Assembly: GCA_008632985.1 (NCBI GenBank)
Contig: QPGO01000013.1
Span: 434,001-498,000, forward strand
DNA from: Psammoneis japonica
Taxonomy: Eukaryota
DNA length: 64,000 bases
Direction: 5' to 3'
The notes under the pieces were generated by a model. It ran no database searches. It saw only the letters and a program-made list of their open reading frames with translations, and was not told where the DNA came from. Each line of letters opens with the position of its first letter. Positions within the stretch are counted from its first letter, which is position 1. The position numbers and the translations under genes were made by a program. Below, one piece after another: positions 1-54,990 of the stretch.

Positions 1-907
1 TGGTGGTCTCTGCTTTGTCATTCACCAGCTGCCTTCTTGCCCCAAACCAAGCTTCCCTGACATCTCAGATCACTTGCTTGTCATGGGCGCACAAGCGCAA
101 ACGGCTTTCCACATCCTTTCTCAGCCTCTGCCAAAACAACTGTGACAACAGCAGTGCTGCAAATCAAACTCACCTTGAGTTGTTTGCACAATTCTGCAAT
201 CTTTCTTTCACAAAAATGGCTGCATGCATTGACAAGGGACGCTTGGTCAATGTGTGCACTGCCTTGGCAAAAAGCAAAGCATCGTCCTCGCTTGGGGGAG
301 CTTTGTTGCCTTGCATTTTTTTGCTGTTGTGTGTGTTTGACCACCCAGCATGAATGTTTGTCTGGGGGCAACTCCATCCACACTGCCATTTTCATTGCAT
401 TGGTCAATGAATGTCTGCACTCTGGCATGTGCTTTGGTCAGAGAGACCTTTGCAACCTTCCCTTCTCTGGTGGATGGCAGTCAGACATGGAGAACGAAAA
501 TGTGTGAGAAGTTGGCATGTTGAAAACGAACATGTGTAAAGAAGGAAAAAATCGAGCAGCAATCTCCATGCCATGTGCTCCCAATGGGGTGCAAAAAGAC
601 TCTCCAGATGCGATTGCCGCTCGATTTTCAACATTGACTCTGCTGCAAACGATCTTCCTGCTGCCATTGTCGATGTCGTTCATTTTTTTCTCGTGCAAAA
701 AGGACGAAGATTGTCGTATGGCGGACGAACGCGCAGAAGATATTTTTTAGAGAATCAATGCAAATGGCGTCGGCGGTCGGCGGCGTCTGTTTAAACCACT
801 CAAACACACACAAACACACATGGTTTAGGCAGTCCAACCGAAACTCTAGTGTGTGTACAAATAACATTTCTAATTTTGGGTCGTAACTACTGCATCGATG
901 ATTCCAT

Positions 908-4744: not shown

Positions 4745-5857
4745 TATTTTCCGTAGAAGTGGTTTGTCGGTGGTTTAGATGACTATTGATCGGCGTAGAC
4801 AATGCTGAGGATCAGCTGTTGCAATGTCCTTCTGTTCTTGCGTGTTCTGGGATTGAATTCTTGCTGGCTATTCGCTTTGTTCTCTGTTGGAACAACGCGG
4901 TGTGCGTGTTGTTGCCAGCAATGCTGACAACAGAATGAAAAATGCGTCGCGCTACGTCATCACGAGCCACGCGACATATGGCATGATGTCATACTGCAAT
5001 AATCTCCTTAAGTAATCAAAATGATGTACTTAACTAGCCGAACACGTCAGATTTTCGTGGTCGTATGTGAAACTCCGGGTTAATTTTTCTTCTCTATTCT
5101 GTTTGTGCTTTCGGCGACTGTGCTCTACACACATGATGATTGAATGATAAATGTGTAATTTTATTCAAGCAACAAGCGTGAGCGAGCAAGATGACAAGCG
5201 CAAGCTCTCTTCTGCTGTCTAGACTGGCGCTGCCAGTGCTGGCAGACAATGACCTCTCTGGGTCCAACACATGACATGCAGCGGCACTCTGGAGCACCGC
5301 TTCTGAGGCAACTTTTGCCACATCTGAAGAACGTTGTGCTGCTGCTCAACACACCAGGTGACAACGTTCATTGAATGTGACCTGCAGCACAAAAGACAGG
5401 ATGAGTTGTGGCACCTTGTGTGCAGAGTGCAATGATTCATTTGTCACACAAAAAATGTGCTTGCATTGTGTCGCCACAAAAAATGGAAGCCACCGGGCCT
5501 GCTCCAATTCCAGGTGTGGTGCACAGGCTCGATTCCCACCACTGGCCCATTTTTGCATTTGGCACAACAAACTCCTTTAAAGCTTGTTTGAAATTGACAT
5601 TTTCCCAAATCGAAGTGCAAGTGTGCACAATGCTTGAATTTTTGTGTGTGCACCACTTGCAGCTCGATTTTCGAAACCATCAAAGTTGAAGGAGTTTGAT
5701 GTGCTGAACTGCACAAAAAATGAGCTCCAGTGTGATGGATTGCAGATCACCTGGGGCTGGAACAGGCCACCACGGAGGGTCACATCTGGAGTGATGGCCA
5801 TCACGACCGTGATGGAAGCAAGAGCCAAGTGCCGCCAAAGTTGGCGCCAAGAACTCA

Positions 5858-6253
5858 AGACTCGTTCCAGGTCTATGTAGGTGGGACCTCGTACTACTGA
5901 ACTGTGACATCGATAGTTTTTTGAGTCTCGTCGTATGTCGCGCACGTAGATTTCTACGTGATTTTTTCGATATTTTGTGTCATTTTACGGTACACTTATT
6001 GAGCGATCCGTCCAACAACTTTTGACATTTTTTGTTACAGCGCGATTCTACAATGTCTTAAGAATCGCGTAGGGCAGGCGAAGTTGCAAAAACGTCGAGT
6101 GGTAAGAGGCATAATTGTACCACAAACTTGGCCGTTTATTTGATGTTGAAGATAAATATATCCATTAATTAAATTCTCGTACTACAGAGCTCGCACGTAG
6201 AATTCTACGGGCCCAATGTCACACGGAGTCCCACCTAGGGCTGGAACGCGTCT
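5858..6253 (+). mobile_element. ~390 bp non-coding element with imperfect terminal inverted repeats (MITE-like), copy 1
   Basis: Ends AGACTCGTTCCAG..TAGGTGGGAC and GTCCCACCTAGGGCTGGAACGCGTCT; each arm carries the palindrome CGTAGAwTTCTACG; homologous inverted copy at 22143-22540. Confidence 0.7.
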
Positions 6254-6735
6254 CAACAGCAGCAATGTAAATTTCTCTCTTCTCCAATGACAAGGGGGGG
6301 GGGGGGGGGCACTGTGACCAATGTTTGCAGGAACTTGCTTCACAGTTTTGCTCTGCATGTGTGACGAACAAGCGCCGGCCAGCCGCTGTGACGAAGTGCT
6401 CCACACACATTGCCGAGGCAATGCCCAAGTGATCAAGTCCATCACTTTCCTTCTACAAAGGGTTTTCTTCTTGCCACAAGGTGACAACAATTGAGCCATC
6501 GCAGTCGCTGAATGTCATTGTGGCATGGGAAGAAAAACTGCAGGGTTCAGGATTCCATTTGCCCTTTCGAGCTCTGACAAATGACAAAGATCGACATTGG
6601 TGGCCCAGGTGGACAGCTGGTGCCGGGCGGAGGGGCCCTGCGGCAAAGAAATCCATGCATGTCAAAACGACCCAAAGTGTTGAATGTGAAAAAAAGAACG
6701 CCGCCGCTGCCCGCTGCTGTTGTCCATGTCATCCC

Positions 6736-7706
6736 ATGTCGACTTTTGACGATGCGGAAAGACCGTCCAAGCAGAACAGTGCTCGCCATTGCTCTCGGCA
6801 GGTGCGGTTTCTTCTTCATGACTGAATTCCGTTGTGGTCTCATGTGATTTGATGTTTGATTGTGCACTGCACAGCGGTCCTTCTTCTGGGCGGTGATGAG
6901 CATGGGCGAAAGAGATTGCCTCCAGGGTGTTTCAAGGATCAAGTGGATTTGTTACGTGCAGCAGGCTTGCCATTTGGATCCTTTCCTTTTCTACTTTCCA
7001 ATCGAGTCGTCTGCAAACTGCTGGTTGGATGCTGAGCATCTTTTTCTACCCATTGCTTTTGGAGGGAATCGGACTCCGAAAGCTGCACATGGACGAGTGT
7101 GTGAGAGATGCGATTTCTAGTAGAGAGCGAAAGATCAACCAGGTGCCAGTTGTAGCAGGAGGCTATGATGGGCTAGCTTGGCGAATGTCGCGAGAGTTTT
7201 CATCCGTCAATGTGTTTGAAGTGGATCATCCAGCAACTGGCGGGGTCAAGCAACATGCAATGGCTCGACTTGATGCGAGTTGCGAGAATCTAGACCATGT
7301 GCTGACTGACCTCACCGAGTGCACTTTGAAGCAAGCAGTGGAAAAGGCCGACAATTTTGATATGCGCGTTCCAACCATTGTAGCAATGGAGGGTCTGCTA
7401 ATGTATTTGACACAAGATCAAATCATTGGCATGTTCCGAGACGTTGCTAAAATTGTGGGCGAGGGATCAATTGTTTGTTTTGATTTTTTGGCGTGGAATC
7501 ATGCAGTCAACCGCGTGGATATGAATTTCATCTTCATGGTTCATGGACTTGTCAACAACTTTGGCGAACCTTGGTATTTCGGACTGGAGCGGTCGCGTCT
7601 CCAGGCATTTTTTCAAATACATTTGCCAATGTACAGTGTAACTGATCAACAACCAAGAGTAGGAATTGAAAATGTGGCGTGCGCAACGCTTGTGAAGAGA
7701 ATCTAA
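6736..7706 (+). pseudogene. Class I SAM-dependent methyltransferase (leucine-carboxyl-methyltransferase/Ppm1-like family) with a degraded 5' end
   Basis: Motifs PSRTVLAIALGR (other frame), QVPVVAGGYDGLAWR, VFEVDHPAT, AMEGLLMYL; the 5' part lies in a TpA-depleted tract and has frameshifts/stops. Confidence 0.65.
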
Positions 7707-8198
7707 TTGATTGTTTTGAAAGAAAGCCAGCAACTTCTCTTGCTATAGTTTCATTACATAGCTATTCTATTGTTATCGTAGGGCTATACCCTATCGTCAA
7801 TTCCTATCTAGACAGAGAGGGAGAAAGAGGGGAGTCCCATTTCGCATTTCGGTCTTGGCAACGCCATGCCATACACGAGCGACAAGTAATAGTGCCGACC
7901 ACCATCAACGTTGCCCTCGAACGCTACGTCTGATCGTGTGATGTTTGATGCCTGAGCATTTTTGCATATGCCACATTGATCGGCACTTTCAAATTTCATC
8001 CGTTGAGACTAAGTACAAAGCAAATTCAAATAGAAGTATCAGCTAGATCCAACATTATCTAGCGATTCTGGGTGTCTTAGAAGTAAGCCTTACTAATAGA
8101 GAGAATATTTACTACTTCCACGAAAATCCAGTTCAGCGGATTTGTTGCTATTTGTCTGGCACTGTGCCAGTACTGGTTGTTCAAACTGCAACAGACTC

Positions 8199-8678
8199 TC
8201 ACTCTTGTTTGTCACATGGTCCAGCCGTGCAGGACACCAACTTGATTCCCTCAGAACATACACCAGGATGGAAGACTTCCTTGCGCCTTGGTACCAAGTG
8301 TTGAGCGCACTTTGAACTTCCAATATATACCGTTTCATGAAAGGTTCCATCAGAGGCGCAGAATTGGTCCTTCACAGAAAGGAATTTGGGCATTCCTGCG
8401 TTTCTCGTGCAGGGAGATCCAGGCTTCTCGTACGTATCAAACGTCTGCGTCATGATTGGATCACCCTCGCATTTCCGGTCTTTACCATAAACCAAGAGAG
8501 TCACGCACGCCGTAGGATCCTCCTCGGTTCCAGTCTTGCTTGCATCATGATCGGATACATCTTTAGTGAAAGAATTCTCGTCATCGCCACCACCTCGTAA
8601 GGCAACGGAGGACCCAACAATCTCTTGAGACAATGTCGAGATGAGGGCTAGTGAGAGGAAAAGGCAGTATCGAACCAT
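8199..8678 (-). CDS. Small secreted Cys-rich protein
   Basis: Signal peptide MVRYCLFLSLALISTLS, several Cys, open 159-aa frame. Confidence 0.55.
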   Translation of the reverse strand: MVRYCLFLSLALISTLSQEIVGSSVALRGGGDDENSFTKDVSDHDASKTGTEEDPTACVTLLVYGKDRKCEGDPIMTQTFDTYEKPGSPCTRNAGMPKFLSVKDQFCASDGTFHETVYIGSSKCAQHLVPRRKEVFHPGVCSEGIKLVSCTAGPCDKQE

Positions 8679-8995
8679 TTTTGCCGAGTGTTTGACCAAT
8701 TTATGAGACACTTACTCGAATGTGACAACCCCTCATTTTTTGAGTCCCGCGAAAAACATCAACACGCGTTCAAAATCTGCTTCTCCGGAAGACAGACTGA
8801 CTGACTCATTCCACATTCTTTTTTTTTTCGTCAGTTGCTTTTCAACACGTAACACCATGACGAAGCCGGTATCGCGACTCGCATCTCTGCTTTGTTCGCA
8901 CAAAAAGCAGTGTACCGCCACAATTTCGAAATTCATTGAAGCGTTTCGCTGCCATTGACTAACCACAAGCAAGCACACACACAACATCAATCATC

Positions 8996-9721
8996 ATGCA
9001 ACAGAAGACGAGTTTGCACAGAGAAGTTCTTCGCTTTTCGAATCTTTTGGTGGTATTTCTCACCCTTTTACCAATCTCTACCGCCTTTACACCTTCGAAT
9101 GCTTCCTTTCGTGGCTGCTCGCCGGCATCTGTGTGCGGCATCACGCTGCAAGCTGCCTCTGGTACTACACTGAGCAATCCGGGAGTGGAGAGTCAACGAG
9201 ACGCGGATGTTCGTGAAGTTGTACGACAAGTGTTCAATGACAAAGACAGTCGTCCAGTTATCCTGTTTGATGGCGTGTGTAATCTTTGTAATGGCGGTGT
9301 GAATCTTGCGTTGGATTGGGATCCTCGAGGTCATTTTCGGTTTGCAGCGCTTCAATCGAATGTAGGACGAGCGCTCTTGGCTGTGCACGGGAAGGAACCT
9401 GACGACATTTCTTCCATTGTGCTGGTGACGAACAAGGGTAAAAAGGCTTATTTCAAATCGGATGCGATTCTAAGAATTGGGCAAGAACTGACGCCGCCAG
9501 CCGATTCTGCGCCTTTGAGGCGCGTACTGTCAATGGCACCGGTGAGACCTGCAGCCTATGCCGGGAGATTGTTGGTGCCGAAATTCGTTCGAGATTTGGT
9601 TTACGACGGCGTTGCTAACAATCGGTATAGCATACTTGGAAAACGGGATCAATGTCGATTTGATGCAGACGGAGAGTTTGACGACAGATTTATTCCAGAC
9701 GAAGATATACTTGCGTTGTGA
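8996..9721 (+). CDS. DCC1/DUF393 thiol-disulfide oxidoreductase-like protein, plastid-targeted
   Basis: ILFDGVCNLCNGGV (DxxCxxC), FRFAALQS, RDLVYDGVANNRY; signal peptide + 'TAF' motif. Confidence 0.85.
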   Translation: MQQKTSLHREVLRFSNLLVVFLTLLPISTAFTPSNASFRGCSPASVCGITLQAASGTTLSNPGVESQRDADVREVVRQVFNDKDSRPVILFDGVCNLCNGGVNLALDWDPRGHFRFAALQSNVGRALLAVHGKEPDDISSIVLVTNKGKKAYFKSDAILRIGQELTPPADSAPLRRVLSMAPVRPAAYAGRLLVPKFVRDLVYDGVANNRYSILGKRDQCRFDADGEFDDRFIPDEDILAL

Positions 9722-9833
9722 TTGCATTTCACATTCTCTATAACTCTTGACTCTGTAGATCTTGCTCAAATTTTAACGAACAATCATTCCTTTATTGACA
9801 ATCCAGCTTGCAGCTTCGACTTGAAATTATAGT

Positions 9834-13610: not shown

Positions 13611-13738
13611 TGCAGCAAAATCTTGCGCCAGATTTTCTTTTGAATTTTTGGCTTCAATTGCATCATTCTCTCTTCTCACAATTTCGTTTCTGTTGTCCAA
13701 GTGGTTTCAAGCTCCGCAACTTCCAACTCAACGACAAG

Positions 13739-21015: not shown

Positions 21016-22142
21016 ACAATTGGAGTAAAGAAAATTGGAGTAAAGAAGCTATTCAAGTCGTAGGCGGACCGTGAACGCGAAAAAGATACATATTAGGTAG
21101 GCTTGTAAAACCATTAAATTTACACCTTTCACTAATTGGATAGTACATAGACAAGGAAATTCTCCATTGAGACCGGAATGGGGAATATATCGGAGGTGCT
21201 ATCGCCGACCTTGTAGTTGCTGGCTGAAACGAACAACTGAGCCGCTTTTCTCGTGATATCTCGTCCTCTTGAATGCAGGTTCTTCTACACTTGCAGCAGA
21301 GCAATCTGATGATGAGGGGTCTTGTTCTTGATGAGAGTAGTTAGAGCTATAGCTGGCTTCCGAGTCTTTTCTTTTCGGAACGCGTGCTGGTGGCACTGAC
21401 GATCCAGGTGGTTCGTCGAAAGCTCTTGCTATTCTCGAGAGTTCCACTGTATCCACTTCACCGGGAAAGACAAGAAGAGACGATCTACTTGTGATAGAAG
21501 AAAGTCGATGATTCATGATAAACAATTCAATCCAGCGTTGAGGATCCCCTTCGAACGACGATGAAGCGATCTTACGTTATCGTAGTGCGTTCCAGTTCAT
21601 TCCCTGATCGAAAAATCCAAAATGAAGCACGCGAACAAAGGCGAACGCGCCTTTGCTTTGGTCGCGTGCGCACTCGTGACTGCAACTGCGAGAAAGTGAT
21701 GAGGCACGGGAACAAAATCGAAGCTCCGCACCCAATAGACACATCCAAGGTTGAATAAAATCCATTGACGAACATAAGTGTGACTTTTCCCGCGCAAAAA
21801 TTTAAGGCGCATGAGCCTTTTCCACATCAACATGGCAAAGGATCAGGATTCAGGATGCGCTTTCATCTTCATTCCAATGCTCTCGCCCCAACAACAAAAA
21901 CAAAAAACCGATAGACCCGAGACACCATGACCGACTACAAACGCTAGTGCTGCACAAAGGGACTAAAGAGTGCCACAGCGCAGTGAATGAATGGTGCGGC
22001 GGCGCAAGTGAAGATCTGCAGCAGCCGCACTGCGCTGCTCAAACTCATGCAGCTGCAGAGACGCGCTTTCCAGTCGGAGTCATTGACAGCTTTGCTGGAG
22101 TGAAAAAGACAAAACTGAGCAATGTTGAAATGTTTCGAGAGC

Positions 22143-22540
22143 AGACGGGTTCCAGTCCTGGGTGGGACTCCGTGTGACATTGGGCCCGTAGAATTCTGCG
22201 TGCGAGCTCCGCAGTGAATTCACCCTGCAATGAAAACATGCATGATCGCCAACAGAAAAAGAGACAATTTTACGAACGTATCTCCTCCTTCACACTTGGA
22301 GTAAATCATTGATGGTTTGCCCGGGTGTGTTCTTCAGACATCAAAGAACACACCCAGCATGTTTTCATTCTCACAAATGTTGAAAACAGAAAGCCTTTGG
22401 CTTCGCAAAACAGGGAGCATGAAACAATTTCGTAAAATGTCACACGTAGAAATGCACGTGCGCGACACACGACGCAATCCAAAAAACTGTTGATGTCACA
22501 GTTCAGTGGCACGAGGTCCCACCTGGAGCTGGAGCGCATC
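22143..22540 (-). mobile_element. ~390 bp inverted-repeat element, copy 2 (inverted relative to copy 1, partly TpA-converted)
   Basis: Both arms align to the reverse complement of 5858-6253; similar length; interior not recognisably homologous. Confidence 0.7.
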
Positions 22541-22692
22541 AGCACTTCGACGTGATTGGAGCGGGCGTTGAACGAGGAACTCTCCTCGGCTCAGATTTTT
22601 CAGCGGTTGTTTCTACAAAGCAAAACCCGATGCAGCTCGTGCTTGCAAAGGTGCCCGTTGTGGGTGCACATGCTTGATCAAGAGGCATCCTC

Positions 22693-24678
22693 TTGGCTTT
22701 GGAGGACTTTCTCAAGTCACCCAAGGTTCAAGAGTGCCGTCATGACTGCCCGCTTGTTTTGTCGACCTGCTTGAACATGGCACGGGCTCTCAACAAACTC
22801 GTTCTGGGCCAAGCAGACGTGAAGCTTGCCCCTCCCCTCGATCAGAGCCTCACTCGAGTCAATGAGTTGCTCATTTGCAATGGACTTGTTGATGCTCCAT
22901 CATCGTCCTCCGCAGACAGTGAGGCCAGTGATGGAGTTCTGGTCAAGTTTGAGCCTCGCCAGTGTCTTCCGCAAGACTTTGCACCAGTGTCTGAACACGT
23001 TGCTCCCCATCGCATCCAAGCTGCCAAGGCAGGATCCTGTCACATTTGTCCCTGTCCTTGTGAGAAATGCGCGGATGCTCTTGAGGTTCGATTTGTCGAC
23101 CCCGCCCTCTCCATTCCCCAGATCAAGTTGTTTCAGGACATCTGTGTGGACTGTGGAACGGATGAGTGCTTGGCCTGTCCTCGTCACGCAGCGGCCTTGG
23201 GTGAAACAGATCAACTGGCTCCAGATGTGCTTGCCGAGGTGGATCTGCAAATGTTTTGGGTGGCCGTTCTGAGGATCGACTCCTCCATTGGCATCTTGCA
23301 AGAATTGCCAGGAGTTGACAACAACCTGATCGGTCAATGGGAGGAACTGGAGATGGGAGTCAACATGAACCAGCAACACGTTGCGAGTCTTGTCCGAGAA
23401 AGGCATCTGACCAGACTCAGCTCAGTGGACAGTGAACAAGTCTTTCAGATTCAAGACAAGACACATCATGAAAGGCTTGCTCTGGATCATGCCTGCTTTG
23501 GCTTGATGCTGACGCTAGATGGCGTCGAGCCATTTGTGGATGCCTCGCGACCCATTCCTGATGCACAGTTCTGTAATTTTTGCCAGATGACAGAACTGCA
23601 AGCTCTCATCATGCCATTTGCGACGGCAGGGAAAATGGAACAACAAAGACCCTTCATTCAACAAGAGTGCACAAATGCTTTGCTCAGCAGGTTTGCGAGT
23701 GAAGGGTTCAAAGTTGATCCTGAAGCCTGTGATCAGACCGCATCGTGTGGCAATTGTGGAGAAAGTGACCCAAGCAAGCTCAAATTTTGCGGAGGATGTG
23801 GTGGAGTGGCTCATTGTGGCACCGAATGTCAGCATGTGTCATGGAGGGATCACAAGAGAGAGTGTGATGGGGCAACCGCGCTCGTCCGGGGCATTGTCAA
23901 TGACTTGGTTGCAGCGCGTGATCCAGATTCACCAACACCTGGTGGCCCAAACATCGTGGTTGGCAAGTCCTCACATGGTTCGGGATTGCCGACTCAAGCA
24001 GGCATGTTTGGTGAAGTCAGTGGCGTGGGAACGAGTTCCATCTTCTGGAACCCAGGTTCCATTTCCTGCATGATGACGTCCCCTGATGACTTGTCTGGAA
24101 TGGCTGTCTCTTTTGAAAATGAAATTGAATTTACTGACAGACTTGAGCTCCCGCCTGTTCTTCGTTTTGCTCTTTCTTGTGGACCGCTCTCAGACATCGA
24201 GTTGGCCAAGCAGACCTGGTCGGAAGCTTTGCAGCAAGTCGATGGAGATGCAACCCAGCTCAAAGTCAATGGGGCAGAATTTACCGCTCTTGAACGGGCA
24301 GCAAAAAAGGGAAACAAAGACACGGTAAAGTGGCTTTGCACAAACAAGCACACAAAATCTCTTGTTCACGTCAGTTCTCCGATTGGCTGGGCAAGTTGTG
24401 CCGGTCAAACCGAGGTCGTGCACTTGTTGCTGTCTCATGGAGCGGATCTTTCTGCGACAAACTGTGTGATGTGGGGAAACACACCGCCTCTTTTGGTTGC
24501 AGCACAGAATGGACAGCTTGAGGCAATGAAGCTGTTGGTGGACGAATGCGACATTGACATTCACATTCGTGATGCCTCTGGTCGTGGTGTCATTGAAAGC
24601 ATCTGCGACTCGCCGGTTTGGAGAGACATCGAAGGTCATGTTGCCAGTTACAACTGGGCAATGGAGAGACTGGCATAG
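22693..24678 (+). pseudogene. MYND zinc finger + ankyrin-repeat protein, open frame but hypermutated (true start uncertain, possibly upstream of the element at ~21928)
   Basis: CGNCG..CGGCGGVAHCGTECQHVSWRDHKREC MYND finger; ankyrin units 'TPPLLVAAQNGQLEAMKLLV'; only one Tyr in 661 aa. Confidence 0.7.
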
Positions 24679-35259: not shown

Positions 35260-38200
35260 CAGTGCTCTACTGACAAATGCTAGCAGCTGCCTCTGCTCCA
35301 GCCTGAGCTGCCAATTCTTGTGCGTTTCTTCTGAGAAGGGGGGGGGAGAACACCACGACAAGAGCAAAAGAAAGTTTGCACAAACAAGTTGCCAACATTG
35401 GCTCATCCCCAGGAGCAAGAGACCCAGTCTAAGTCTCTGTCAATTGTGACAAGAATGTCTCAAGAAGTGATGCTGATTTCTGACCCTGGTGATCAAGAGG
35501 GGGCAACTTTTGTCTGTTGGGCAGAGTGAAGGAGAGACGCTGCTCGGCTCTTGTGTGGGGGATGCTCTCTCTTCCCCCCTGGGGTGCTGGCTGGATGGAC
35601 CAGCTGCACTCTCATGGTTTGGCTGGTTGAGTCATTTGCCTTGTGGGGAGGGACCCAGAGAGGTGTCTTGCAGTCACGTGAAAGGCGCATTTCAGCCACT
35701 CATGAGACGCGCAGTTTTGGGCCTCTTGGGAAAAAATGTTTTTTTCGGAATTTTGAAAAATGGGACCTCGTTGGTCGGTGAAAGCAGGAGCAAACAGAGA
35801 GTGATTTTTCAAACCGGTTGGATGGGTCTGATTTTCATGGACCAAGTCCAATGATGCGCGAAGATGGACAAGGGATTGATGGTTTTGCTGGGCTTCGGTT
35901 GTCGACGTCGTGATGTGTGGAACACCGATCATGAAGTTGAGACCAAATTTGAGAAAAAGAGCTCGTGACATGACACGATTGCACAAAAGAATGCAGTTTC
36001 CAAAATGGTTCTACAGATTTTGTCATTGTTCACTCACGTCATGCAGCAGTGCAAAAGAGAAAAGTGGGGGGAACCTGACTCAATTTTGAGACAGAAGGCA
36101 CTGAAGTTGTTAAAAAATGGCACAAATGATGTCACTTTCTCAAAAAGCATTCTTTAATGAGAATGCATGTGAGGAGTTGCAAGAATTGTTCATAAACACA
36201 GAAGTGTGATTGTGTGATGCCAAGTTCCTGATCACATTTTTGAAGGGCCACACACGACAGTGTTGTGATGTCCCGCTCACAGACAAATGATGACATCATG
36301 TCATGACACATGTGACATCAACAAATCACCTTTGTTTCAGCATGGCTTGTTGCAATTTGTCATTGCAACAAAAGAAAGAGCATTTCATTTGTTCTTCTCC
36401 TTTGACAAAAATGTCGCCAATCCCAGGAAGAGGCTTCTGATTGGCCAAAACACCAAATGCAATGCCCACTGACAAAAAACACCATTCAAGCCCCACAAAA
36501 CAGTCACTTGAGCCCCTTAAAACTGACAAAGCACCCACCCACCTGTGCATGTGTTGCTGCCGTGATCAACACAGTCCCTGCCACTGTGTGCGCATTGGCA
36601 AAAGACAAAACAATGACAGGCAACAGGATGCCTGCAGCCAATGGCACAAACATTGGAGCCCTCATCACTTTGTCAGAAGCAAAGCCTGAGATGTCAAGAT
36701 GGAGGCACTGGAGCCTGGTCAAAAAGAGAGTTGGCCACTCTCCTCCTGCCAGTGTGCCTTGAAAATGCAGCACACAGAAAAAAAGCTTTGTGCTTGCACA
36801 CTGTGACCATGCTTTTGCAGTTTGTTCTCCCACCAGTTTGTTCTGTCATGCTTTTCAGTGCCTCACCACATGATTCATCCATGTGTGTGAATTGCACAGA
36901 AGGTTCTTCTGCTGCTGTGCATCACCAGAAACTCCTTCACAATGTGGCCCACTTCCATGCACACACTCCATGCTTGTGTTGTTTCAGCACCTTGCTCAAA
37001 TCACTGGCTTCTCCAATGCATGCCAAACTTTGATGACAAGCACAAGACAGAAGCACAACAAAGCAACAAAACTTTTTTGCACCAGGGGTGCAGCTGGTGC
37101 ACCTGGGGAGCAAAGCCAGCTGGCATGCTTTTCACAACCTTGGCGGGGTGTCCTTGCCTTTGCAGTGCCTTTTTTGTCTTCTTTTGATCAAGTGCTCCTG
37201 TTCCCTTTTTCAAGATCATGCACATGGCCCCAGTTTGGTTCACCTCCAGTGACTTTGCTTGCGCCCCCAGTTTGCAGCACACGACCCCTCCTGCTTTCAC
37301 TTGCAAACCCAGCCCTGCTGGCAGCTGGAAATGAGCTCTCTTGTTGTTTTTCCACATGCGCAAAAACAGCTCAGCAGCAGCTTCACTTCAAGCAACAGGT
37401 CTGCTTCTGGGTGACACCATCTGGCTTTGTTGGGTTGTGACTGCAGCTCTGTCAAAAAGCAAGCTGGTGTGTCTGGGTTGCCATCTGGCAGCACTGGCCC
37501 CCAAGCTGCAGCTGCTGTTCACACAGCACTTGCACGCCACAGCACAAACTGGGTGAAGCAAAATCCTTGAGAAGCTGGTCATTTCATGTTGAGACTGCAC
37601 CTGGAGTTTGCTTCTCTCAACTGCTTGGATGTCAAAATTGAGCCCATTGTGCAAAACAAACAACCAGCTCGTCCTGGCAAGTGGGCCGAGCCGGGAGGAC
37701 TTCTTTTCCGCCCCAGCGAGGCCCCCCTCTTTGCTTTTCATTTCACATTGCTTTCAGCACAAGAATCTTTGTGACTTGACTTCACCTTTTGTTGCAGTGC
37801 AACTTGCGTCGCACTCAAACTTCCTTCTGCAAAACTTGCAACTCATGCCAACCAGGGAGCTGTCTGAGAATGCAAATCTTTTGTTTTTTCAACAGCAAAA
37901 GCCGTGTTTGCTGCAGGTGCCTTGCTTCTGTGTCTTCTTTGTGCCAGTCAGTGCACCATTTTTTGTCCCACCTGCTCTCCCCCCCCCCCCTTGACTTCAA
38001 GCTGTGTGCCACAACTCAGGTTTCAGCACACATCATTCTGTCGCCTTTTTCCGTCAATCGTGCACCCCACCCACCACCTTTCTCCTCCTTCTGTGGCTGC
38101 TGAAGTCTGTGCGCAACTTGGCAAGAGAGAGCCTGGGAAAGGTCGATTGTTTAAACACAGCAGGTGGTTGATGTGACCTGTGAAACATTGAAAGCACTCT
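35260..38200. other. TpA-depleted degenerate tract, probably a transposon relic; family not identifiable
   Basis: Almost no TA, few CG, excess TG/CA; only fragmentary Cys/His-rich ORFs. Confidence 0.5.
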
Positions 38201-44040: not shown

Positions 44041-44289
44041 AACATCGTAGACTCCAGTCGTGTGTCGTTTGGCATTTCATTCTTGGTGCTGAGTCGTGGG
44101 TTTGCATAGCAACACGGTACTACGCACAGCACCGTAGAGCTCTACTGCTTTTAGAGCCACTGCTCTAAAGAGTAGCCAGCTATGCTGGCTAGCGCTAGCT
44201 AGCTAGAGCTGCTCCACTAAGAGTGGAGAGCATGTAGCAACCCGATTTTCGATGTGTCTGTACTTCTAATCGTCGGATTTATCATTGGC

Positions 44290-47200
44290 AATTCTTTTCG
44301 TGCCATGCTGATCCCGTTGTTGTGTCGATTGCTGTGAAGCTGTCAGGAGACCGACACATGATGGAACATTTGTGTTTTTTGCTTCAGCAGTGCTTTGTTG
44401 ATTGTTGGGAAGGTTGTCAGCGGCCCTGAAGCTTGTGCTGGTCCACAACACAAGCCTGCTAAAAAATGGCCACATTCACAGCACGGTTCAGCAGCAGATT
44501 TTGTCCAGATTGCTGGTGTTTTGGTCGCTGGTGTTTTTGTGAAGCAAGGGCTTTTGACCAAGGCAGAAGAAGCTCTCCACTTGTCTTCTGTCTTGAGTGT
44601 CTGTCTGGAGCAGACATCCAGATGACATGCCAACTGGACACTTGGAGCTCTTGAGCTGGCCTCACAGCATGCTCTGCTCTTTCATCATGATCGTCGGCCG
44701 ATCCCAAGCATCCTTGACATGGTGTGCTTGTGGCAATGGAAACAGAGGGTTTTGAGTGATCCAAGGAAGTGCCATCTGCAGATGCCAAAGATGCTTGGAA
44801 TGCATTTCACAATCATGGCTGTCAAAGAACACAGACTTTGTGTTGAGTGCTTCACAGGAGCACACTGCAGCCTGGGAAAACACAACAAACTGACATTTGT
44901 GTTGAGTGCTTCATGGGAGCACGCAGCAGTCTGGGAAAACACAACAAATTGGGATGCCCAAAGTGCAGCACCCTTTGTGCCAAGTGTCAGTGTCATTCTC
45001 TTCAGCGCACTCCACAAGATGGAACAGCAAGAATGCAGAGAAGGGAGTCTGATCATGAAACAAAACAACCTGGCCAGAGAAGAGGGACTTTGTTTGATGC
45101 TTTGAAAGCACGCTCAAGAAGCAAAAACCAATTTGCTTGGTCTTTCCTTGGTTGGATGGCTGGAAAGACAGTGGAAAGCTGGGTCTGTCTGCAAACTGCT
45201 GCTCTCTTGTTCCAAAAGATGACCCTTCTTAAATGGGAGACAGCAGCAGTCAAAAGGGTCAAGCTGGTGAAATGTCTTCATTCAATTGTGGTGGTCTGCA
45301 ATGACTTGAGCAAGACTCAAAACAATGCAACCCAATGGTGCACAACCCTGCAGATTGTGCACTTGCAAATCTTGCAAAATCAGATGACAGCTTCCTTTGC
45401 AACTTCATGTTCTGTCTCTCTTGCCAAGAAGCTAGAAAGAAAGTTGAGGCAAGGAAGGGCAAGAAGTTGGACAGTGGCTGATGGAGCCATTTGTTCACAA
45501 AGTGTTTTGCTGCTGCTAACATCATGAGGAGTGTGTGATGCTCAAATGCCAGAAGTGGTCTCATGCAGTCACTGACTGGCTCACACTTGGCTGCTCAAGT
45601 TGCACCCGACAATCTCTCTTCTCTGCTTTCTGGATTTGGTCCTGCAACAACAAAGCACACTGAAAGGTGGAGGAACCAGAAATCTGTGGATCAAAAAACA
45701 ATGAATGAAGAGTTTGACTTCTCCAAAACATTGAAGTGCAACCACCTGTGCAACCAGCAAGACAACTGTGGGCACAAAGTTCATGGAAAGAAGAAGAGCA
45801 AGGATGGCCTGTTCAAACCACTCAACAAGCAATGCTTTCACATGACTGAGAACAAGCACAACCACTGACAGAGACTGCTTCAACCGAAGCTGTCTTGACC
45901 AAGAGGTTTTTGGCTGGGGAAGCCTGACCACAATTTTGAATCAGAATGACAACTTGAGCATTTTGATTGTTGTGAAGCTGTGTGAAAGGCATCAATCACA
46001 CAGATGAGGAGCATCTGGCAAGACTGCAATTGAGGATCATCAAGTCTGTGATGGTTTGTGAGTCAAAAAAGATGTGGCTGAGGACTGCACAGCATGCAAG
46101 GATGATGCTGCAGATGGTGGGGTTTGAATGGCAAGGTGCACCACACACTGGCATGAAATCATGTCACAGGCGACACTTGACAGTGCTGATTTGGATCTGT
46201 GCTTTTCTGAGTCATGACGGCAGATTGGTGCGAGAATGTGCACATTGACAATGATGAAGACAATGCTCCTGGTGAGGTGTCAACTTTTCAGTCAGTCAAC
46301 AAAAGACACATGGCTGTGCCTCTTGATGCCAATTTTGCAAATGCCAGCACACTGAAAAGGGTGCATGTCTCTTGTGGCCAGCTTTCTAATTGATTGGTGG
46401 TGCTCATTGCCAGCACTGAAGAAGCTCACAGAGAAAGCAATCTTGTTCAGAAAAGCCACCAATGGGAAATTCATGCATGCTGACAGATTCACAGAATTGA
46501 TCATCCATGATGAATGGCACCATTTTGGGGGTTGTGTAAATGGCACCATGGAAAACCATTGCAAGCAGTGCCAAACAACAGCAATGATGCACCAAGCACC
46601 AGTCATGTGGCAAAGGTGGCAACAAAGCAAATGGCAAGTGGCCAGCCAAGGAAGCTGGAGCTCATTGACAAAGTGTTTTGTGAAACTTTGCTGCATGTTG
46701 AAGATTTGAATCTTCATGGAGACAGTCCAGTTAAAAATGCTCCAGCAGGTCCATGCTTGTTGGAATGGCACAAATGTTGTCATGCAGGTGACTGGGGGAG
46801 CAAGTGTCAGTCAGGGAGTGCATTGGCCCATCTGGCATGAAACTCAATGTGGGTGCTTGCTTTGGTTTGTCACACTCAGTGATTGTTGACAGAGATTTTT
46901 TTGTTTCCACATGGAGGCAGAAGATTTGAATGACCCCAAGAGACCCAAGGGTGAGGGTCAAATGGATCTGTTGGTGCTGGATCCACTCAGGAATGCAGCT
47001 GACAGCACTCAGTTTGAGCTGGAAAGGAAGTGTTCCATGTCAACTGACTCCACATGCTCAGTGGAAAAGGGTGTCCATTTTGGCAAAAGAGGCAACAACA
47101 GAAACAGGCAAGCTTGAGGAGGAACTGCAAAGGTGCTGCAACAAGAGGAAAATTGACAAAGAGTTCCTCAGGAGTGCAAAGGAATCAGAAACAGTGTGGA

Positions 47201-47550
47201 GTGTCAATGCTGATGGCCAAGCCAGGGTGTGTGCCATGCAGAACAAGACTTTCTCAGTTGGCGACATTGTCAAGGCATCAAGGCAAGAAAGAAGCTCATG
47301 GAGTTGGACTCCATCTGGAGTGAAAACAGTGCAACAATGTGACACATGAAAGTTGAGATGCCTGGATGATTGCCAGCAATGAGGATTTCCAACCCAGGCT
47401 GAAAAAGAGCTGAAGCATGATCTGTGCACCTTTGAGAGCACTGGGGCAAGAGAGGTTTGGCACTGACACTGTGCAGTTTATCTCATCTGAAGGAGCAGAC
47501 AAGAGTGGTGATGATGAAGTGGCATCAGCACTGTTGCAGACATCAGAAGG
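44290..47550. other. TpA/CpG-depleted degenerate tract of unidentified origin (left part of the large block)
   Basis: No intact ORF; composition identical to the adjacent LINE relic. Confidence 0.45.
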
Positions 47551-47599
47551 ACTGGGGAAATGGCACGCAGTCACAGCAACTTTCCAGTTCTAAATTGAG

Positions 47600-50500
47600 G
47601 TTTTTGCACTTGCAAAAGATCTCTGCAATGCAAGCATCACATGCACCTGCATCTTGCAAATCACTGTCAATCATCTGCCTGTGTCCAACAATTTCCTGAT
47701 CAAATGTCAATGATGTCTGAGACATTGTCTGATGTGTCATCCTCCTGGACCTCTCTGCAGGGTTGTTGAGAGGCTTCATCTTTGGCTCCTCTTGCTTGGA
47801 ACAATGCCCCTCAATGAGATCAGCAACCTGTTCTAAAAGTGTTGAATCTGGACTCTTCAGCTTCCCCCCACAATCAAAGTTGCCGTGATGTGCTTTTCTC
47901 ACTCCTCTCACTCCAACAATCTGAGTGCATTGGAGCACACAATGCCATGTGTTTTTTTGCTCTCTTCTTCTTTGATGAAGCTGGAAAACACAGAAATGGC
48001 TTGTTGCATTGCTTGCAAAAGCAGGCTGGCTGCCATCTGTCTTTGATGCAATTCACCGAACATGAGATGAACATCAATCAGTGATTTTCCCATCAACAAT
48101 TCCAAAATCCTTGGAGCAACCCAAGGCTGATCTTGGGACTGCAATGTTGGGGCAAACCTTTGCTGCAGATTTGGCACCATTCAGTTTGAGCCTCAGCAGC
48201 TTTGATTGAAGCTCCATCAAGCAGCTGACAGACAATTTGATGTGAAAATCATCTGATGCTTTGGTGGCACAATTCACAACAGCAGCCAGCTGCAGATCAA
48301 AACTGGAAGCAACAAAAAAAAAAATTTGCTGTGTGAAGAAGATGGAGATGTGGCAATGCTTGTCAATCATCACAGTTGTTGAGCAGCAGGCCTCCGAGTT
48401 TCACACAACATGGAATGGTTTTTTTTTCATTTTTTTGGTGTTGGGTGCAGAGGCATCAATTTGCAAATGTCAGCACATGGTGGGCCAGGTTGCATTTTCA
48501 CATGAACATGCAGATGGCAGCATGCCAGGACAGAGATGAATTTACAGATGATGAATCCAATGACAAGGACATGACATTGCTGGACAAACTTGAGCCATGT
48601 GCTCTGTCAGATGGCCTGCACCTTGTCAACTGCAAGGAGAGAGTTTTTGGCAAGACATGGGCCACAGCTGGCAAATGGCAAGAATGACAGTGTGGCACCA
48701 AGACTTTGAACAACTCAAAGGACAGAACCCAATGAATGAGGCTTTGTCATCACTTTTCTTCTTGAGTTCCTCAACTTGTTTTTTCAAAGTGCCAGCCAGT
48801 GTGACATGAAATCCCAACATCTTGTGGGGTGCATGCAGGGGATGCATTCTAGCCCTGGCAGGTGGTGACTTCATGTGGCCCACAGAGTCATGCACACAAG
48901 CTCTGCAGCTCTTGTGCTGGCCGGTCAGTGCACACATTTGTCTTCAACATCTAAACTCAATGATCAAGTTTGTGGCACACAATTGCAGCACCTCTCAACA
49001 ATGCTTGCAGTTTTTGAAAATCCACCTTCCCCACACAATTCTCAAGACATTTGAGAATCATGCTATGAAGAAAAGATGTCAAAAGTTGCTCAATGGATGT
49101 CCAACAATTGTGCCACAAAATGTCACAAAATTCCACCAAAGTCACATGGAAATGTGCACACATGACATGCAGTGTGGGGCAAAAAACCATCAATGTCACA
49201 GCTCAGCACTGGCAGCATGAGGTTTCACCTGGAGCTGGAATGCATCAGGAACAGATAAATGCTGCATGACAGAAGGAGTGGTCTGCCAAGCAGATTTCCT
49301 GCACAAGTCTTTGCTTGTGCATGGCCAAAGATGGGGCTTGACACATTTGGCAAAATTCCATTTGATTGTGCAAAACCAGCACTTTGGGAGGTCCAATTCA
49401 TGGCCACATGCACTCAGCAGATCACACAACAGCTTGTTGTTTTGTTGGAGAGGCAAGGTGCCAGGTCACATGCCAGCAGCTGTGAAGAAGCTTGAAAGTC
49501 ATCAACTTGCTCAAATGCATCATCAACATGGCCGCGGGTGTGGACTTGCAAGCTGAAGCCACCATCAGGGGCAGACTGCAAAAAGCCCTTTTCAAGAGTG
49601 CAAGAATGCAGGGGGGAGTCAGCCGCTGCTTCCTTGACCTGTGCTGCAATGGGTGCACACCAGCAGAGTGACAGTGACAAGTTGCAGTCAGTGCAGTGAC
49701 CAGAGTGAGAGGAGTCAGTTCTGTGCTTCTTTGTGTGCAGCATTGGTGGCAAAGTGCACAATGTTTTCTCATGCATTCTCCCAAATTCTTGGCACAAATT
49801 GCCACAATGCATGGGACACTTTAGCAGCAGCAAGACATGCAGCCATCATTGCCAGCTGTCAATGTTTTCTAAGAAGTTGTGGAAAATTTCATCATTGGGA
49901 TCTCAAGAAATGCGGGAGTGCCAGAACACCTGAAGGCAAGATTGCCACAGATGCTGAGGTTGTGCAGGCAGTTGTTTGCAAAATGATGGGACAACTCTTG
50001 CCATTTGACACTGCAGATGAGTTGGAAATCAGCTTTGGAGATGTTGACAACCAGGAGTCTCAGTGAGTCTTGTTGTCATTGCCAGGTTCCTTGAAGACCA
50101 CAATGTTGAGACAACATCTTTCCATGAGCCACAGGAGCAAAAACCCATTTGAGCATGCAGCTCAACAAGTTCAATCAAATGGCAGCCAAAGATTTTTGTG
50201 GTGACCCAGCTGTGTTCGTTTTTGGTGGGATTGCCATGCTCATCTTGAGAAGAACAGTGCAGGTGCTTTGCACAAGTTGCCTTCCAGCACTCCAGATGCA
50301 GTGCTGATTTGATGGAGGTGGGCTTGGGTCACTTTCCAATTTTTTTCAGGTTCTTGGAAGAAGAAGAGAGTGCATCAGACATGGACACTCTGGAGTCTGT
50401 CTCTGCAGAGATGTTTGGCTGGCAGCAAGGTGGCCTCATTGAGGGCACTGGCCTCACACTCACCATTGAACACAAGCTCAGCCATTGCAGTGTCTCCCTC

Positions 50501-53450
50501 ACAACCCAGATCTGTGGAAAACAGAGGAACAGTGGGAGGAGTTTTGCAAGCTTGTCCCAAGTGCTTTTGACTTTGTTTGCCTTGAGAGAATCTCCACAAC
50601 ATCTTCAGGAGCATCTGTTGTGACCCAGCTTGTGCACTCCTTGAGACTCTCCTCTGGATTCTCAGGCACCAGAATGTTGTGGACACTGGTGCTTTCTGTG
50701 CAAGACCAAGCCTTAATTTTTTGAAATGTTCCGCTGGTTTCTTTGGTGGTGCACATGTTGCACAGAACCTTTGCCTGTTTCTTGGACTTGTCAGTGCCCT
50801 CTAAATTAACTCCAGCAATGCAAGCATCCCACTCTTTTCACAGTGACAAACACCATCTCCAGCCACCTGCTGGCACTCAGCTTGGGCCTTGGGAAGCCAA
50901 GTCTCTGACACTCTGCCTGTTCTTTGCCTGGAATGAGTTGATGCTGGGTGAAAAGGATGGAGTTCCCACAAAATTGACACCCCCCACCTTGTGCATGGAA
51001 GGGACCCGCCGCATCAGAACAAATGCTTTGTGGAGCTGTGCCAGCTGAAAAAACCACTCTGTCTTTTCTGAAACTGTCCACAGTGTCAAGCTGCAGAAGA
51101 TGCAAACTGCAGCATGCAACAATCTGATTGTTCAGCAAGCAAGGGTGGGATCTGCAACATCAGATTGCAGGAGCTGAGCACTCCTTGCCAGGACATTTGT
51201 GTGGACCCATGGAAAATCCACAAATTGGGCTTGATGATCAAAGGAAATGCAACAGCTAAAAAGAGCTCACAACCACAAGAACAGACCACATCAAGAACTC
51301 CTGGAGTCACCAACATGTGGTCCAATCTCTTTGATCTGTGGACAAACAACAAGCACCAAAGCTGTGACATCCTGTGCATGGCTGAACATCCTTGCACGGC
51401 CCACAAGATTGAGCTGACAAAAGCCAATCTTGCTGAAGAATTCTCATCATTGGCAAAGTCTGCATTGAAGTTGCCAAAACACTGCAGCTTCAGAGAATGG
51501 ACTGTCAGAAGGTGAGTGTGCAGTCACACTCATGATGGAAAGCACATGTTGCAGATCGCTGCCCAACACAGCAAGGAGATCTCTGGTTCAGTGGTGTCAA
51601 GGCACATTGGAGACATGCCCACCAAGTCTGTCTGGACTTCATTTGCCAGCTGAAAAAAGGCAACAAAATTGCCATTGGCACAAGCATTGAATTTGCACCC
51701 ATTTGCACTGGAGGTGTGCAGACAAGTGCAGTGTGAATCTTCCTGAGTCAGACAAGCTGGAGCGATCAATCTGTTGAGATGAATCAAGGAAGGTGAGTTG
51801 CTGTTGAGACAAGATCTAACTCCACTGCTGCTGAAAAGGAAGCTCTGGGAGGAGACTTGGGAGGAAGGCACTGACCCTGCATCTTGTTGAGAAAGGAGGG
51901 CAGGGAGGATGACTTGTCCTGCCTTGCACAGAACCTGACTTGGTCTGGGTCATGGCAGTCATGGCACAGCACATTGAGGATGACTGGCCTCAGACACACT
52001 GGGTTTCAAAGTGAGTGGTCTTTTGGGAGTTGGGGGGGGNNNNNNNNNNNNGGGGGGGGGGCAGAAAGGGGCAAAACAAGAGCAGCAACTTGATGGTGAA
52101 AAATGGCCTGAGGAAATTGCTGAATGTCTTGTTCATGGAGCTTTTCCTGTGCTTTGTGAAAATTGGGTTGTGACCTCAAGGAATCAACTTCAGTCACAAT
52201 GGCTGACACTTTGCACACTTTCTTTTTGATGACATCTGTCATTCAGTGAAATTCCATCATTGGACAATGTGTGGCACAGTGATCCCACAACAAAGTGTTG
52301 ACCCAAATTCTGAAAACACACGGAGTTTTGAAGTGCCCATGCACAGAATCATGTTGCTCAGGCAAAAGTCATTGTGTGAAGATTTGGAGAAAAAGCATTC
52401 CTTGAGGCATCCATCAAGTGGAGAAGCATGGCAGAAGCACAAGAAAAATGCTGACCCAAACCCTGTTTGTTTGTGATTTTTTCCACATGCAAGAAAATTT
52501 CCACATGATCATTGCACCATGGCTTGTTGAGAGAGCCCCAGCTGTGAAGACTTGCCAATGCGATCAAATGCGTGGCATCTGAGGTGTCTTTGAGATGCCA
52601 GGAATTGTCAGATGGGGCAGCCTGCCACCACAGGGAGCACATCACAGCCAGGCAGGTTGTTGACCACAGCTTGAAGATTTTGCAACAAAGCTGGCAAACC
52701 AGCTTGTGCATTTTGCACCAAGCTAACACACTCTGCACCACAAGGGACAACATCAACCACTCCTTCTTCCAAGGAGCCAGGGTGTGACCAAGTGGCTTTC
52801 TCATGCTCGTTTGGGTGAGAATGATGCCAACTTCTTGATGGAATCAGAAAATGGGGATCATTTTTTAGAATTTCTGTCAGACATTGAGCACTTCTTTCAC
52901 ACTGTTGCAGGGAGTTTCCACTGACAAGAACTCTGCATGAATCACTTTGTCATCATTGGGAGTGTGACAGATTGAGGAATCAACTGCTGAGTTGGGAGCT
53001 TGGCACAATGTCTCAGTTGGGGAACAAGGCAATGAGGCACTTGAGTGCCAAAACAGTGGAGTGGTGCATTGGCAAATTGTCCACAATCTGGGCAGTGTGG
53101 GCCACACATTGGTCACTGTTTTGTCCCATTTGTGAGATGACACACAAAGACGGCATTGTTCTTTGAAGTCTTTTGCACAAAAAGCAACATGTTGAATTTT
53201 GATGAGGAGAGAGAGGCATGGAGTTGGTGTGAACAGTGATGCAGGTCAGGGCACAATGACCGGTGCCACTGATGTGGTGGACAACAAAGTGCTGGGAGTC
53301 AGCAAGGCCAGGTGTCCGCTGAACGCCATGTTCGTTGATTTCAGGGACTGTTTTGCCACTGCTGGAATCAAGTGATCTCCTGCATTTCCACCAAGCTGTT
53401 TGAAATGCCAGAACCAGATCTGGTGGGAGTGTGTGGAGCATTTTCAACAG
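47600..53450 (-). mobile_element. Degenerate non-LTR (LINE-like) retrotransposon; ends approximate; assembly gap at 52040-52051
   Basis: Ordered minus-strand RT fragments: WK..TSIKSALHLECWKA (~50280-50345), VVFKEPGND..SKADFQLICSVKWQEL (~49995-50105), STGQGSSG (~49622-49645), GHVDD (HVDD at 49519-49530), LLSACGHELDLPKCWF (~49375-49422). Confidence 0.75.
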
Positions 53451-53529
53451 CAGGTGGAGGATCGGGTTGGTGAGTGCCGGCATCATGGTGATGAGATCTT
53501 GGTGCAAAAAGCACGTGAAAAAGCAACAA

Positions 53530-54990
53530 GTCCCGACACAGGTGTGGGCACGCACCCAGAAACGGCAGTCATGCCCGAAGAAATCAAAGGATGCTTCTTG
53601 TATGACATGGGACCGTCTGTGGCCTGTCACACTGTTAAAATACAACAATGTCGAAAATGCACTGGTGCTAAAGACTGGCTTTGTCGGGAAAGGATACAGC
53701 ACCGTAGAGTGATTTGACGCGAAAACTGTGGGCTGAGAACCAGCTCCTCCTATTTGTGTTCTATGCCTTCTCAAAGGCTGTTGTTCACCGACATCACTAA
53801 CCTTTGACACACCAAGCCTGTCTCTACTCTGGCAAAAGTAATCTAGAGAGAGTGCCAGCAGAGAGCAGGTTATACTCTAGTCCCCACCTCAAAACTGTAG
53901 AGTCTGAGAAGCAATGCGCTCTGTTTCTCAAAAGCTATAGTACGGTTTTTAATTACAGTAGTATTTTAAAACATGTCTTGCATTTTACAACTCATCATGA
54001 GGTCTTCCACAAACATGTTCAATCACCTTGGGTAGGGCACTCTGCAAACTCTCGGCTGCCGTGTGCAAATTCTCCAAAAACTCATCCTGCGTCGGCCTAT
54101 CTCCATCGACAATATCCGTCACAACCTTGACACCAAAGTGAGGCGTATCATGCAATTCACATGCCCACGCAATCGAGGCAATTTCCATGTCTTTGACGGA
54201 CGCATCATTGGCCAGCATGTGCTTGTCGTCCGTTTCGGTCTTGTCGAGACTGTTGCCCGTTGAACAGACACCCATTTTGGCTCCAATCGATTTGGCAAGT
54301 TCCGAGGCTGGGACCGAGTCGAGTTTGCCAACACCATACTCGACAAAGGACGGAATGGGAATGCGCCGATCGTGATGAGCCGATCCAGTCGTGACAAAGA
54401 CATCCCCAATCGCAGCACCTTTGCGAGAAAAGCCTCCACACGTTCCGGCGTTGATTACCAAATCAACACTGTCCTCCAATTTTTGCAGCGCCAAAAAGAC
54501 AGCCATGGCCGCCGGGACGGTACCACAATTGTCCACGCCCGTTCCGTACGTTTCGTCCTTGCCATTGGTAATGACTGTAACGTTGCACGCTTCGTGAATG
54601 CCCTGAAAGGCTAAGAACGGAGCTTGCTTGGGGAAAAATTCGTCGACGGGGTTCAACTGCAAATGCTTGACAAAGGGCATTGCCTCTGCTTCCATGGCAA
54701 TCGCAATGACGACACTGTTTAGTGAGAAAAAGGGGAAAAAGATGAAATTATGTGAGTGTGTATCAGAAAGCATGCTATTGCTTACAGAAATCGATTTCTG
54801 CTGTGATCTGTGATAGTATCTTTCTCACATACACAGATGGGTATCCTTTTTGTACGAATTCAACTCACTTTTCAATAGTTTTGGGTTCTAACGGAGGCAT
54901 ATCTTTGGCAAACGACTTCACAAGAGACACAGCAAAGACAAGAAGGAGAAAAGCCTTGCACGAAAAGTTGTAAGACACCATTGCGACTTG
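53530..54990. repeat. Duplicated segment, copy B
   Basis: Aligns to 42590-44040; the left ~350 bp carry TA->TG/CA changes. Confidence 0.9.
53985..54900 (-). CDS. MTN: MTA/SAH nucleosidase, copy B (intact; exon 1 MPPLEPKTIE, intron ~54715-54868)
   Basis: Same motifs as copy A, uninterrupted frame. Confidence 0.88.

Follow-up and report, generated by a model that had tools for sequence, protein, structure and literature searches.

The window (i.e. the whole 64,000-nucleotide stretch of DNA that was analysed) is gene-dense and encodes a BT1 transporter, an S10 peptidase, a transaldolase, a plastid-type FtsY (the closest clusters of which are green-algal and diatom) and an LCM-family O-methyltransferase. 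The TA dinucleotide is under-represented throughout, its observed/expected ratio (o/e) being 0.55-0.65 in the ordinary parts of the window, and a two-state segmentation delineated seven virtually TA-free tracts, or TA deserts, which make up 27% of the window and display TA o/e values of 0.02-0.06 together with TG/CA o/e values of 1.5-1.85. The deserts discussed below are as follows, copies 1 and 2 being those of the repeated element described in the next section.

5225..5858: desert B, left flank of copy 1; 1 TA, TA o/e 0.03, CG o/e 0.41, TG 2.03, CA 1.72
6257..6952: desert B, right flank of copy 1; 2 TA, TA o/e 0.05, CG o/e 0.62
21965..24648: desert C, spanning roughly an ankyrin/zf-MYND coding body and copy 2
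35288..38151: desert D; 2.9 kb, TA o/e 0.03, CG o/e 0.27, TG/CA 1.70
44283..53601: desert E; 9.3 kb, TA o/e 0.03-0.04, CG o/e about 0.1, TG and CA about 1.85

Deserts B and C, which are below 3 kb, have the same signature as D and E. Two further deserts lie at the ends of the window (1-714 and 63155-63994; TA o/e 0.02 and 0.06, respectively) and run off it. No similarity between deserts was found by repeat searches or by comparison in purine/pyrimidine space. As to their coding content, no credible Pfam match came from the 18 open reading frames (ORFs) flanking copy 1 or from the 44 ORFs that deserts D and E contain (the two matches recorded there were both under the curated cut-off), desert B gave no Pfam family, and neither did desert E when its six frames were translated past the stops, written as X. 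A gap of 12 N occurs within desert E (52040-52051), and a homopolymer of about 18 G lies in the right flank of copy 1 (6295-6312).

Anatomy and abundance of the element

The element occurs in three copies in the window, with the following features.

5859..6252, + strand: MITE copy 1; 394 bp, intact, 30 TA, 28 CG, ends GACTCGTTCCAG...CTGGAACGCGTC
5855..5858 and 6253-6256: left and right target-site duplication TCAA of copy 1, read directly
5945..5958: subterminal palindrome CGTAGATTTCTACG of copy 1, with its partner CGTAGAATTCTACG at 6196-6209
6041..6069: central hairpin of copy 1 (CGCGATTCT...AGAATCGCG), the stem being present in both the MFE and the centroid folds
22144..22540, - strand: MITE copy 2; 397 bp, other interior, partly hypermutated, 6 TA (o/e 0.23), 20 CG
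22140-22143 and 22541-22544: target-site duplication AGCA of copy 2
22323-22355: central hairpin of copy 2
48841..49246, - strand: MITE copy 3; 406 bp, interior type of copy 1, fully hypermutated
48837-48840 and 49247-49250: target-site duplication of copy 3 (AGGG and AGGA, respectively)

With its TIRs, a target-site duplication of fixed length, a size below 500 bp, no coding function and a high copy number, the element is a MITE, i.e. a non-autonomous class II transposon. The element ends, which were set by comparing all junctions, are 5'-GAYGCGTTCCAG...CTGGAACGCRTC-3' in the three copies, so that the original prediction was right about the existence of the element and slightly off in its limits (5858..6253 and 22143-22540 for copies 1 and 2). 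It had also named two copies correctly and missed the third one, which we found by a self-comparison in purine/pyrimidine space that is blind to transitions. The target-site duplications that it proposed to look for are present in all three copies as 4 bp (TCAA/TCAA, AGCA/AGCA and AGGG/AGGA, the last pair differing by one transition), a 5-bp reading being less likely.

The arms of the element share the motifs GTTCCAG, GGTGGGAC and TGTGACAT and a palindrome. The conserved architecture recognized in the original prediction was borne out, as the combination GTTCCAG..GGTGGGAC occurs three times in the window for 0.01 expected, with the palindromes and central hairpins in place. The arms of copies 1 and 2, in inverted orientation, align over 82 nt (87%) and 73 nt (92%), and the interiors of these two copies are largely different, each with its own central hairpin, as had been claimed. 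These imperfect inverted arms of about 100 nt, with their repeated motifs and palindrome, are probably transposase-binding sites. Folded as single-stranded DNA, copy 1 forms a long hairpin (−61.9 kcal/mol; z = −4.4) that none of 100 shuffled sequences equalled. The ORFs touching the element match no Pfam family, and Rfam yielded no family across the window, the element included. An autonomous partner with the same ends was looked for within the window and none was found, and exact-seed repeat searches detected no larger repeat or palindrome around the MITE.

The element resembles the Stowaway and Tourist MITEs of plants in being shorter than 500 bp and non-coding, in having TIRs, target-site duplications, a hairpin and a high copy number, and in forming subfamilies with common arms and different interiors. 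Target-site duplications are TA in Tc1/mariner, TWA in PIF/Harbinger, TTAA in piggyBac and 8 bp in hAT elements. The present element differs from these common parents of MITEs by its 4-bp non-TTAA duplication and its 5'-GAYGCG...CGCRTC-3' ends, and an origin from any of the four was rejected, since the duplications TCAA, AGCA and AGGR fit none of them.

The summed depth of contigs from one public sequencing run amounts to 44,000-70,000 in the bins of the element, with 174,814 at position 5968, and to about 60 on unique DNA, this depth being no copy number and giving the abundance of the MITE, from that single run, as an order of magnitude. In that sense the family comprises roughly 10^3 copy-equivalents, many of them young: 4,547 contigs of one run were placed on the stretch, and 675 of them are at least 99% alike. 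It is a very numerous family that still appears young. Copies 1 and 2 lie in single-copy flanks (depth about 60, as in the bin 4800-5463 of the left flank of copy 1), the MITE being the only repeat there. Separately assembled contigs differ from the window at no position in 4800-5560, at 6 in 6552-11429 and at 14 in 22512-24700; the run that reproduces the desert flanks is possibly the window's own source, in which case its support is not independent. Outside this material, an arm-pattern scan of a metagenome collection returned two loci, both of them an unrelated tandem repeat and neither a true relative, and a scan of viral contigs and prokaryote genomes for relatives of the MITE gave no match.

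Mutation state of the three copies

Copy 1 stands out from its surroundings. As the original prediction had noticed, a TA-rich element (30 TA in 5859-6252; TA o/e 0.96) lies between TA-stripped flanks (1 TA in 5225-5858 and 2 in 6253-6952, i.e. 3 TA in 1,334 bp; TA o/e 0.03 and 0.05). Expressed per T, TA occurs at 30/123 in copy 1 versus 3/323 in the flanks (Fisher P = 2.5e-15).

The other two copies tell a different story. Compared with copy 1 in the same alignment (A3), copy 3 has 23 of the 30 TA now as TG or CA and one TA kept, along with 25 of the 28 CG now as TG or CA and no CG kept; within 48838-49240, the limits first assigned to it, it has 3 TA and 1 CG. With 95 transitions and 46 transversions relative to copy 1 overall, copy 3 must therefore also be old. 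For copy 2, 16 of 29 TA are now TG or CA and two are kept, and 13 of 29 CG are kept. Hence, the mutation state of each copy matches that of its surroundings, copy 1 excepted.

Two consequences follow. First, since copies 2 and 3 are stripped of TA, the core of the MITE is not protected, contrary to what the original prediction had proposed; copy 2 does lie in a TA-depleted zone (desert C), as it stated, and is not TA-rich itself. Second, as copy 1 has all of its 30 TA amid stripped flanks, it arrived after its tract had mutated: at the 6% TA survival of the flanks, the survival of 30 TA out of 30 has a probability of about 1e-37. The suggestion that the element inserts into already silenced DNA is thus apt for copy 1 and inapt for copies 2 and 3, which predate most of the mutation.

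Other comparisons around the copies gave nothing. We saw no similarity of flanks, either between copies or between the left and right sides of a copy, in purine/pyrimidine space, which is a weak test with linear-regime scoring. The ORF models of the empty sites of copies 1 and 3 restored no long frame, and TA-free DNA has long random frames anyway.

Desert edges, CG loss and known hypermutation systems

The deserts end abruptly. A manual count gave 16 TA in 44150-44282 and then zero beyond the left edge of desert E; its right edge lies 12 bp before a duplicated segment of a PNP gene; desert D begins 9 bp past the end of an ORF; and desert B ends on the right side at base 6952, taking in about 55 nt of the LCM-type gene as counted from its probable start, while TA density in that gene is normal from 6953.

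6897..7706, + strand: LCM-family O-methyltransferase gene (Pfam PF04072, E = 4.9e-22)

The edges are therefore sharp, at gene borders or up to about 50 bp off them, and TA depletion does not decay with distance, so that the fading into the methyltransferase gene described in the original prediction was not confirmed. The enzyme encoded by this gene is not a DNA methyltransferase. A CTAG-rich, TA-dense stretch (44150-44282) directly adjoins the left edge of desert E, and a similar CTAG-rich repeat occurs at 16140-16286. Two PNP_UDP_1 phosphorylase segments (42674-44010 and 53614-54959), which are 84-92% alike and TA-normal, bracket desert E.

The CG dinucleotide declines along with TA, but later. 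From an o/e of 0.92-1.06 in normal DNA, it drops to 0.41-0.65 in deserts B and C, to 0.27 in desert D and to about 0.1 in desert E. Within desert E, the first and last kilobase, at o/e 0.23 and 0.48, are the least depleted, the inside having 0.02-0.11. This decay would most simply correspond to deamination of methylated CpG in silenced DNA. TG and CA are enriched equally to the left and right of every copy. Editing by break resection at the insertion site, as in kataegis, was rejected, given this equality of TG and CA on both sides with no strand switch.

Desert C contains a dead gene.

22546..24678, + strand: hypermutated ankyrin and zf-MYND pseudogene; 1 Tyr in 666 codons

Its only detected relative is the protein P0003 (45% identical), all 13 aligned tyrosines of which are replaced in the window (by 8 Cys, 1 His, 3 Phe and 1 Leu), and the frame has an in-frame TGA at 22675 where P0003 has Arg. 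In the MYND finger, the canonical Tyr preceding a Cys has become His. As the homology with P0003 starts 5 nt past copy 2, the coding region is probably disrupted by the MITE; the first 74 residues of P0003, compared with the gene that lies upstream of copy 2, showed no significant homology. It follows from the genetic code that the editing of TA to TG or CA can create no in-frame stop codon and removes TAG and TAA, which is why TA-only deserts have long frames. Dead hypermutated genes look like long intact ORFs for that same reason.

The closest parallel is provided by mutation-accumulation lines of Bigelowiella natans, in which, according to the available text of a 2026 preprint, the mutations are almost only A->G/T->C, all at TpA (Mettrop et al., bioRxiv 10.64898/2026.01.13.699255). 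[quoted passage not shown] The window resembles what is described there in several respects. TpA loss is near total, with a matching gain in CpA+TpG on both strands equally. The tracts form separate single-copy stretches of some kilobases that often resist annotation. ORFs of TE type and ORFs with zinc fingers are hit, among others. The deserts of the window pass the TpA-cluster thresholds given in that text (runs of at least 3 kb; desert E measures 9.3 kb and desert D 2.9 kb), and A:T->G:C changes at TpA are seen against a homologue at 23 of the 30 TA in copy 3 and, as Tyr to Cys or His, at 9 of the 13 P0003 sites. The deserts thus match the TpA->TpG/CpA hypermutation of B. natans as the preprint describes it, the two being equated by their signature alone.

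The window also departs from what that text describes. Its older tracts are also stripped of CpG, it has one MITE family in three stages and edges near gene borders, and one of its tracts is an ankyrin/zf-MYND gene of cellular type. The preprint's main text, as available, mentions neither CpG nor MITE (0 mentions; 10.64898/2026.01.13.699255). Searches of the literature retrieved nothing relevant on MITEs of chlorarachniophytes or on TpA/CpG depletion in diatoms, and, on CG methylation in B. natans, no paper that names the species. From the 211 mutations, 6,169 TpA and 3,132 generations given in the preprint, TpA loss in an active region is about 1.1e-5 per generation; if the locus of copy 1 were still active, and assuming the same process and rate, its intact insert of 30 TA would have been exposed for less than about 9,000 generations.

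Two other systems invite comparison. An A->G change after T/U is the trace expected of an adenosine deaminase such as ADAR, with its 5' U preference; in contrast to the kataegis of APOBEC deaminases, neither side of the insertion sites in the window shows a strand-coordinated switch. Fungal RIP (repeat-induced point mutation), with its leakage into flanking DNA, is, like the process in the window, regional, saturating, transition-only and dinucleotide-specific, and kills mobile or foreign DNA. RIP converts CpA to TpA, so that TA becomes enriched, and it requires duplicated DNA. It was rejected on both counts: the direction is opposite here (TA o/e 0.02-0.06, with CA/TG enriched), and the mutated flanks are single-copy (depth about 60) while many MITE copies are apparently untouched. 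In a further contrast with RIP, the TpA editing of the window cannot create in-frame stop codons.

Explanations for the element in the deserts, and other features of the window

We regard it as likely, though well short of certain, that the MITE is a passenger in TpA-hypermutated tracts, neither their cause nor shielded from them, and that copy 1 is a late arrival. The TA deserts would have undergone a saturating TpA->TpG/CpA transition hypermutation, followed in the older tracts by a slower decay of CpG to TpG/CpA. Copies sitting in a tract during its mutation would have been mutated along with it, copy 3 completely and copy 2 mostly, and copy 1 would have been inserted once the mutation of its tract had ended. 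Copies may collect in dead hypermutated DNA mainly since insertions there would be harmless in a gene-dense genome. The three copies serve as internal time markers: as one is intact, one TA-stripped and one stripped of both TA and CG, the loss of TA came first and was fast, that of CG came later, and hypermutation was episodic at each locus.

The placement of the copies is the point at which this passive reading is put under strain. All three copies lie in deserts that cover 27% of the window (0.27^3 = 0.02), the rest of which is mostly coding. Copy 1 is 638 and 700 bp from the desert edges, i.e. 31 bp off centre in 1,732 bp (P = 0.046 for uniform placement); copy 3 is 4,558 and 4,355 bp from the edges of desert E, i.e. 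101 bp off centre in 9,319 bp (P = 0.023); and copy 2, at 179 and 2,108 bp from the edges of desert C, is off-centre (P = 0.84). A Fisher combination of the three values, made by hand and post hoc, gives about 0.03. Such a centring of copies 1 and 3 is not predicted by passive accumulation.

It could be accounted for by active targeting, in which a transposase tethered to hypermutated or silenced chromatin, or preferring TG/CA-rich DNA, would bring the copies to the deserts with no survival bias involved, the central placement then corresponding to the core of a chromatin domain. The occurrence of the three copies in deserts, the clear entry of copy 1 into a finished desert, and duplications (TCAA, AGCA and AGGR) that lack both TA and CG are in keeping with this proposal. 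We nevertheless hold it to be rather unlikely, because there are three sites only, any site in a desert lacks TA and CG anyway, and the gene density of the window makes survival bias a sufficient explanation.

Still less probable, in our opinion, is a nucleation of the deserts by the MITE itself, whereby an insertion, for instance through a hairpin RNA and small RNAs, would mark a unit from which TpA hypermutation spreads outward on both sides. Besides the nearly central position of two copies and the presence of all three in deserts, this proposal can draw on the single-copy flanks of copies 1 and 2, in which the MITE is the sole repeat, on the shallowest CG depletion being that of the outermost kilobases of desert E, and on the fact that copies 2 and 3 are about as mutated as their own flanks. 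Against it stand the following lines of evidence. First, copy 1, with its 30 intact TA in saturated flanks, calls for an extra step of renewal, either gene conversion from unmutated copies or excision followed by template repair. Second, desert D (35288-38151) has no detectable copy, even by purine/pyrimidine-space comparison, and copy 2 is off-centre. Third, the edges of the deserts are abrupt, at or near gene borders, with no decay with distance. Fourth, the 675 contigs that are at least 99% alike imply that many copies are unmutated. Fifth, the hypermutable regions in the available text of the preprint are viral inserts, and the MITE goes unmentioned there. The intact state of copy 1, the absence of a copy from desert D and the sharp edges also weigh against the recruitment of the mutagenic machinery by the element, one of the two alternatives of the original prediction.

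In a bounded version of the same idea, which we find equally doubtful, the MITE would seed a hypermutated domain by marking a delimited unit for TpA editing, and its copies would be renewed from an intact pool. Two of the three copies would then lie within about 1-2% of the desert centre because an insertion marks the unit around itself, and copy 1 would be pristine because one of the many intact copies had served to renew it. If true, this would mean that a mobile element directs a programmed DNA-editing defence to specific loci. As copies 2 and 3 were present during the mutation, these two may have had a triggering role.

Lastly, it is very improbable that the deserts stem from systematic errors of base calling or assembly at modified bases: both palindromic YR dinucleotides do vanish together in the deep deserts, which base modification could mimic, but separately assembled contigs of the public run (which may be the window's source) match the flanks, the Tyr positions of P0003 are Cys/His codons in an otherwise conserved frame, and the preprint, in its available text, has the same mutations arising de novo in Illumina data.

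Returning to the passenger reading, TpA-specific DNA hypermutation is, going by the available preprint text, a recently reported form of eukaryotic genome defence. To the content of that text the window adds a single repeat family whose copies represent the stages before, during and after hypermutation, i.e. an internally controlled mutation spectrum, as well as the order of events (TA, then CpG), the episodic action at each locus and the abrupt edges near gene borders. The window removes the idea of a protected core for the MITE, and leaves the central placement of two copies as an oddity. In practical terms, TpA editing kills genes by missense changes such as the loss of Tyr and inflates ORFs, and it will mislead gene prediction.

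Other repeats also occur in the window. An SLC4-type bicarbonate transporter gene is duplicated in tandem (13725-15700 and 16615-18600; 94-98% alike and spaced by about 2,900 bp). At 59187-60758, at least nine tandem repeats of 159 bp (53 codons), 80-86% alike and with a GC content of 58%, lie in an 828-codon frame of the minus strand. Finally, the region 33184-34089 has seven repeats, spaced by about 140 bp, that all contain CTTACC (read as GGTAAG on the opposite strand) and resemble a series of short Gly-rich exons whose splice donors are conserved.
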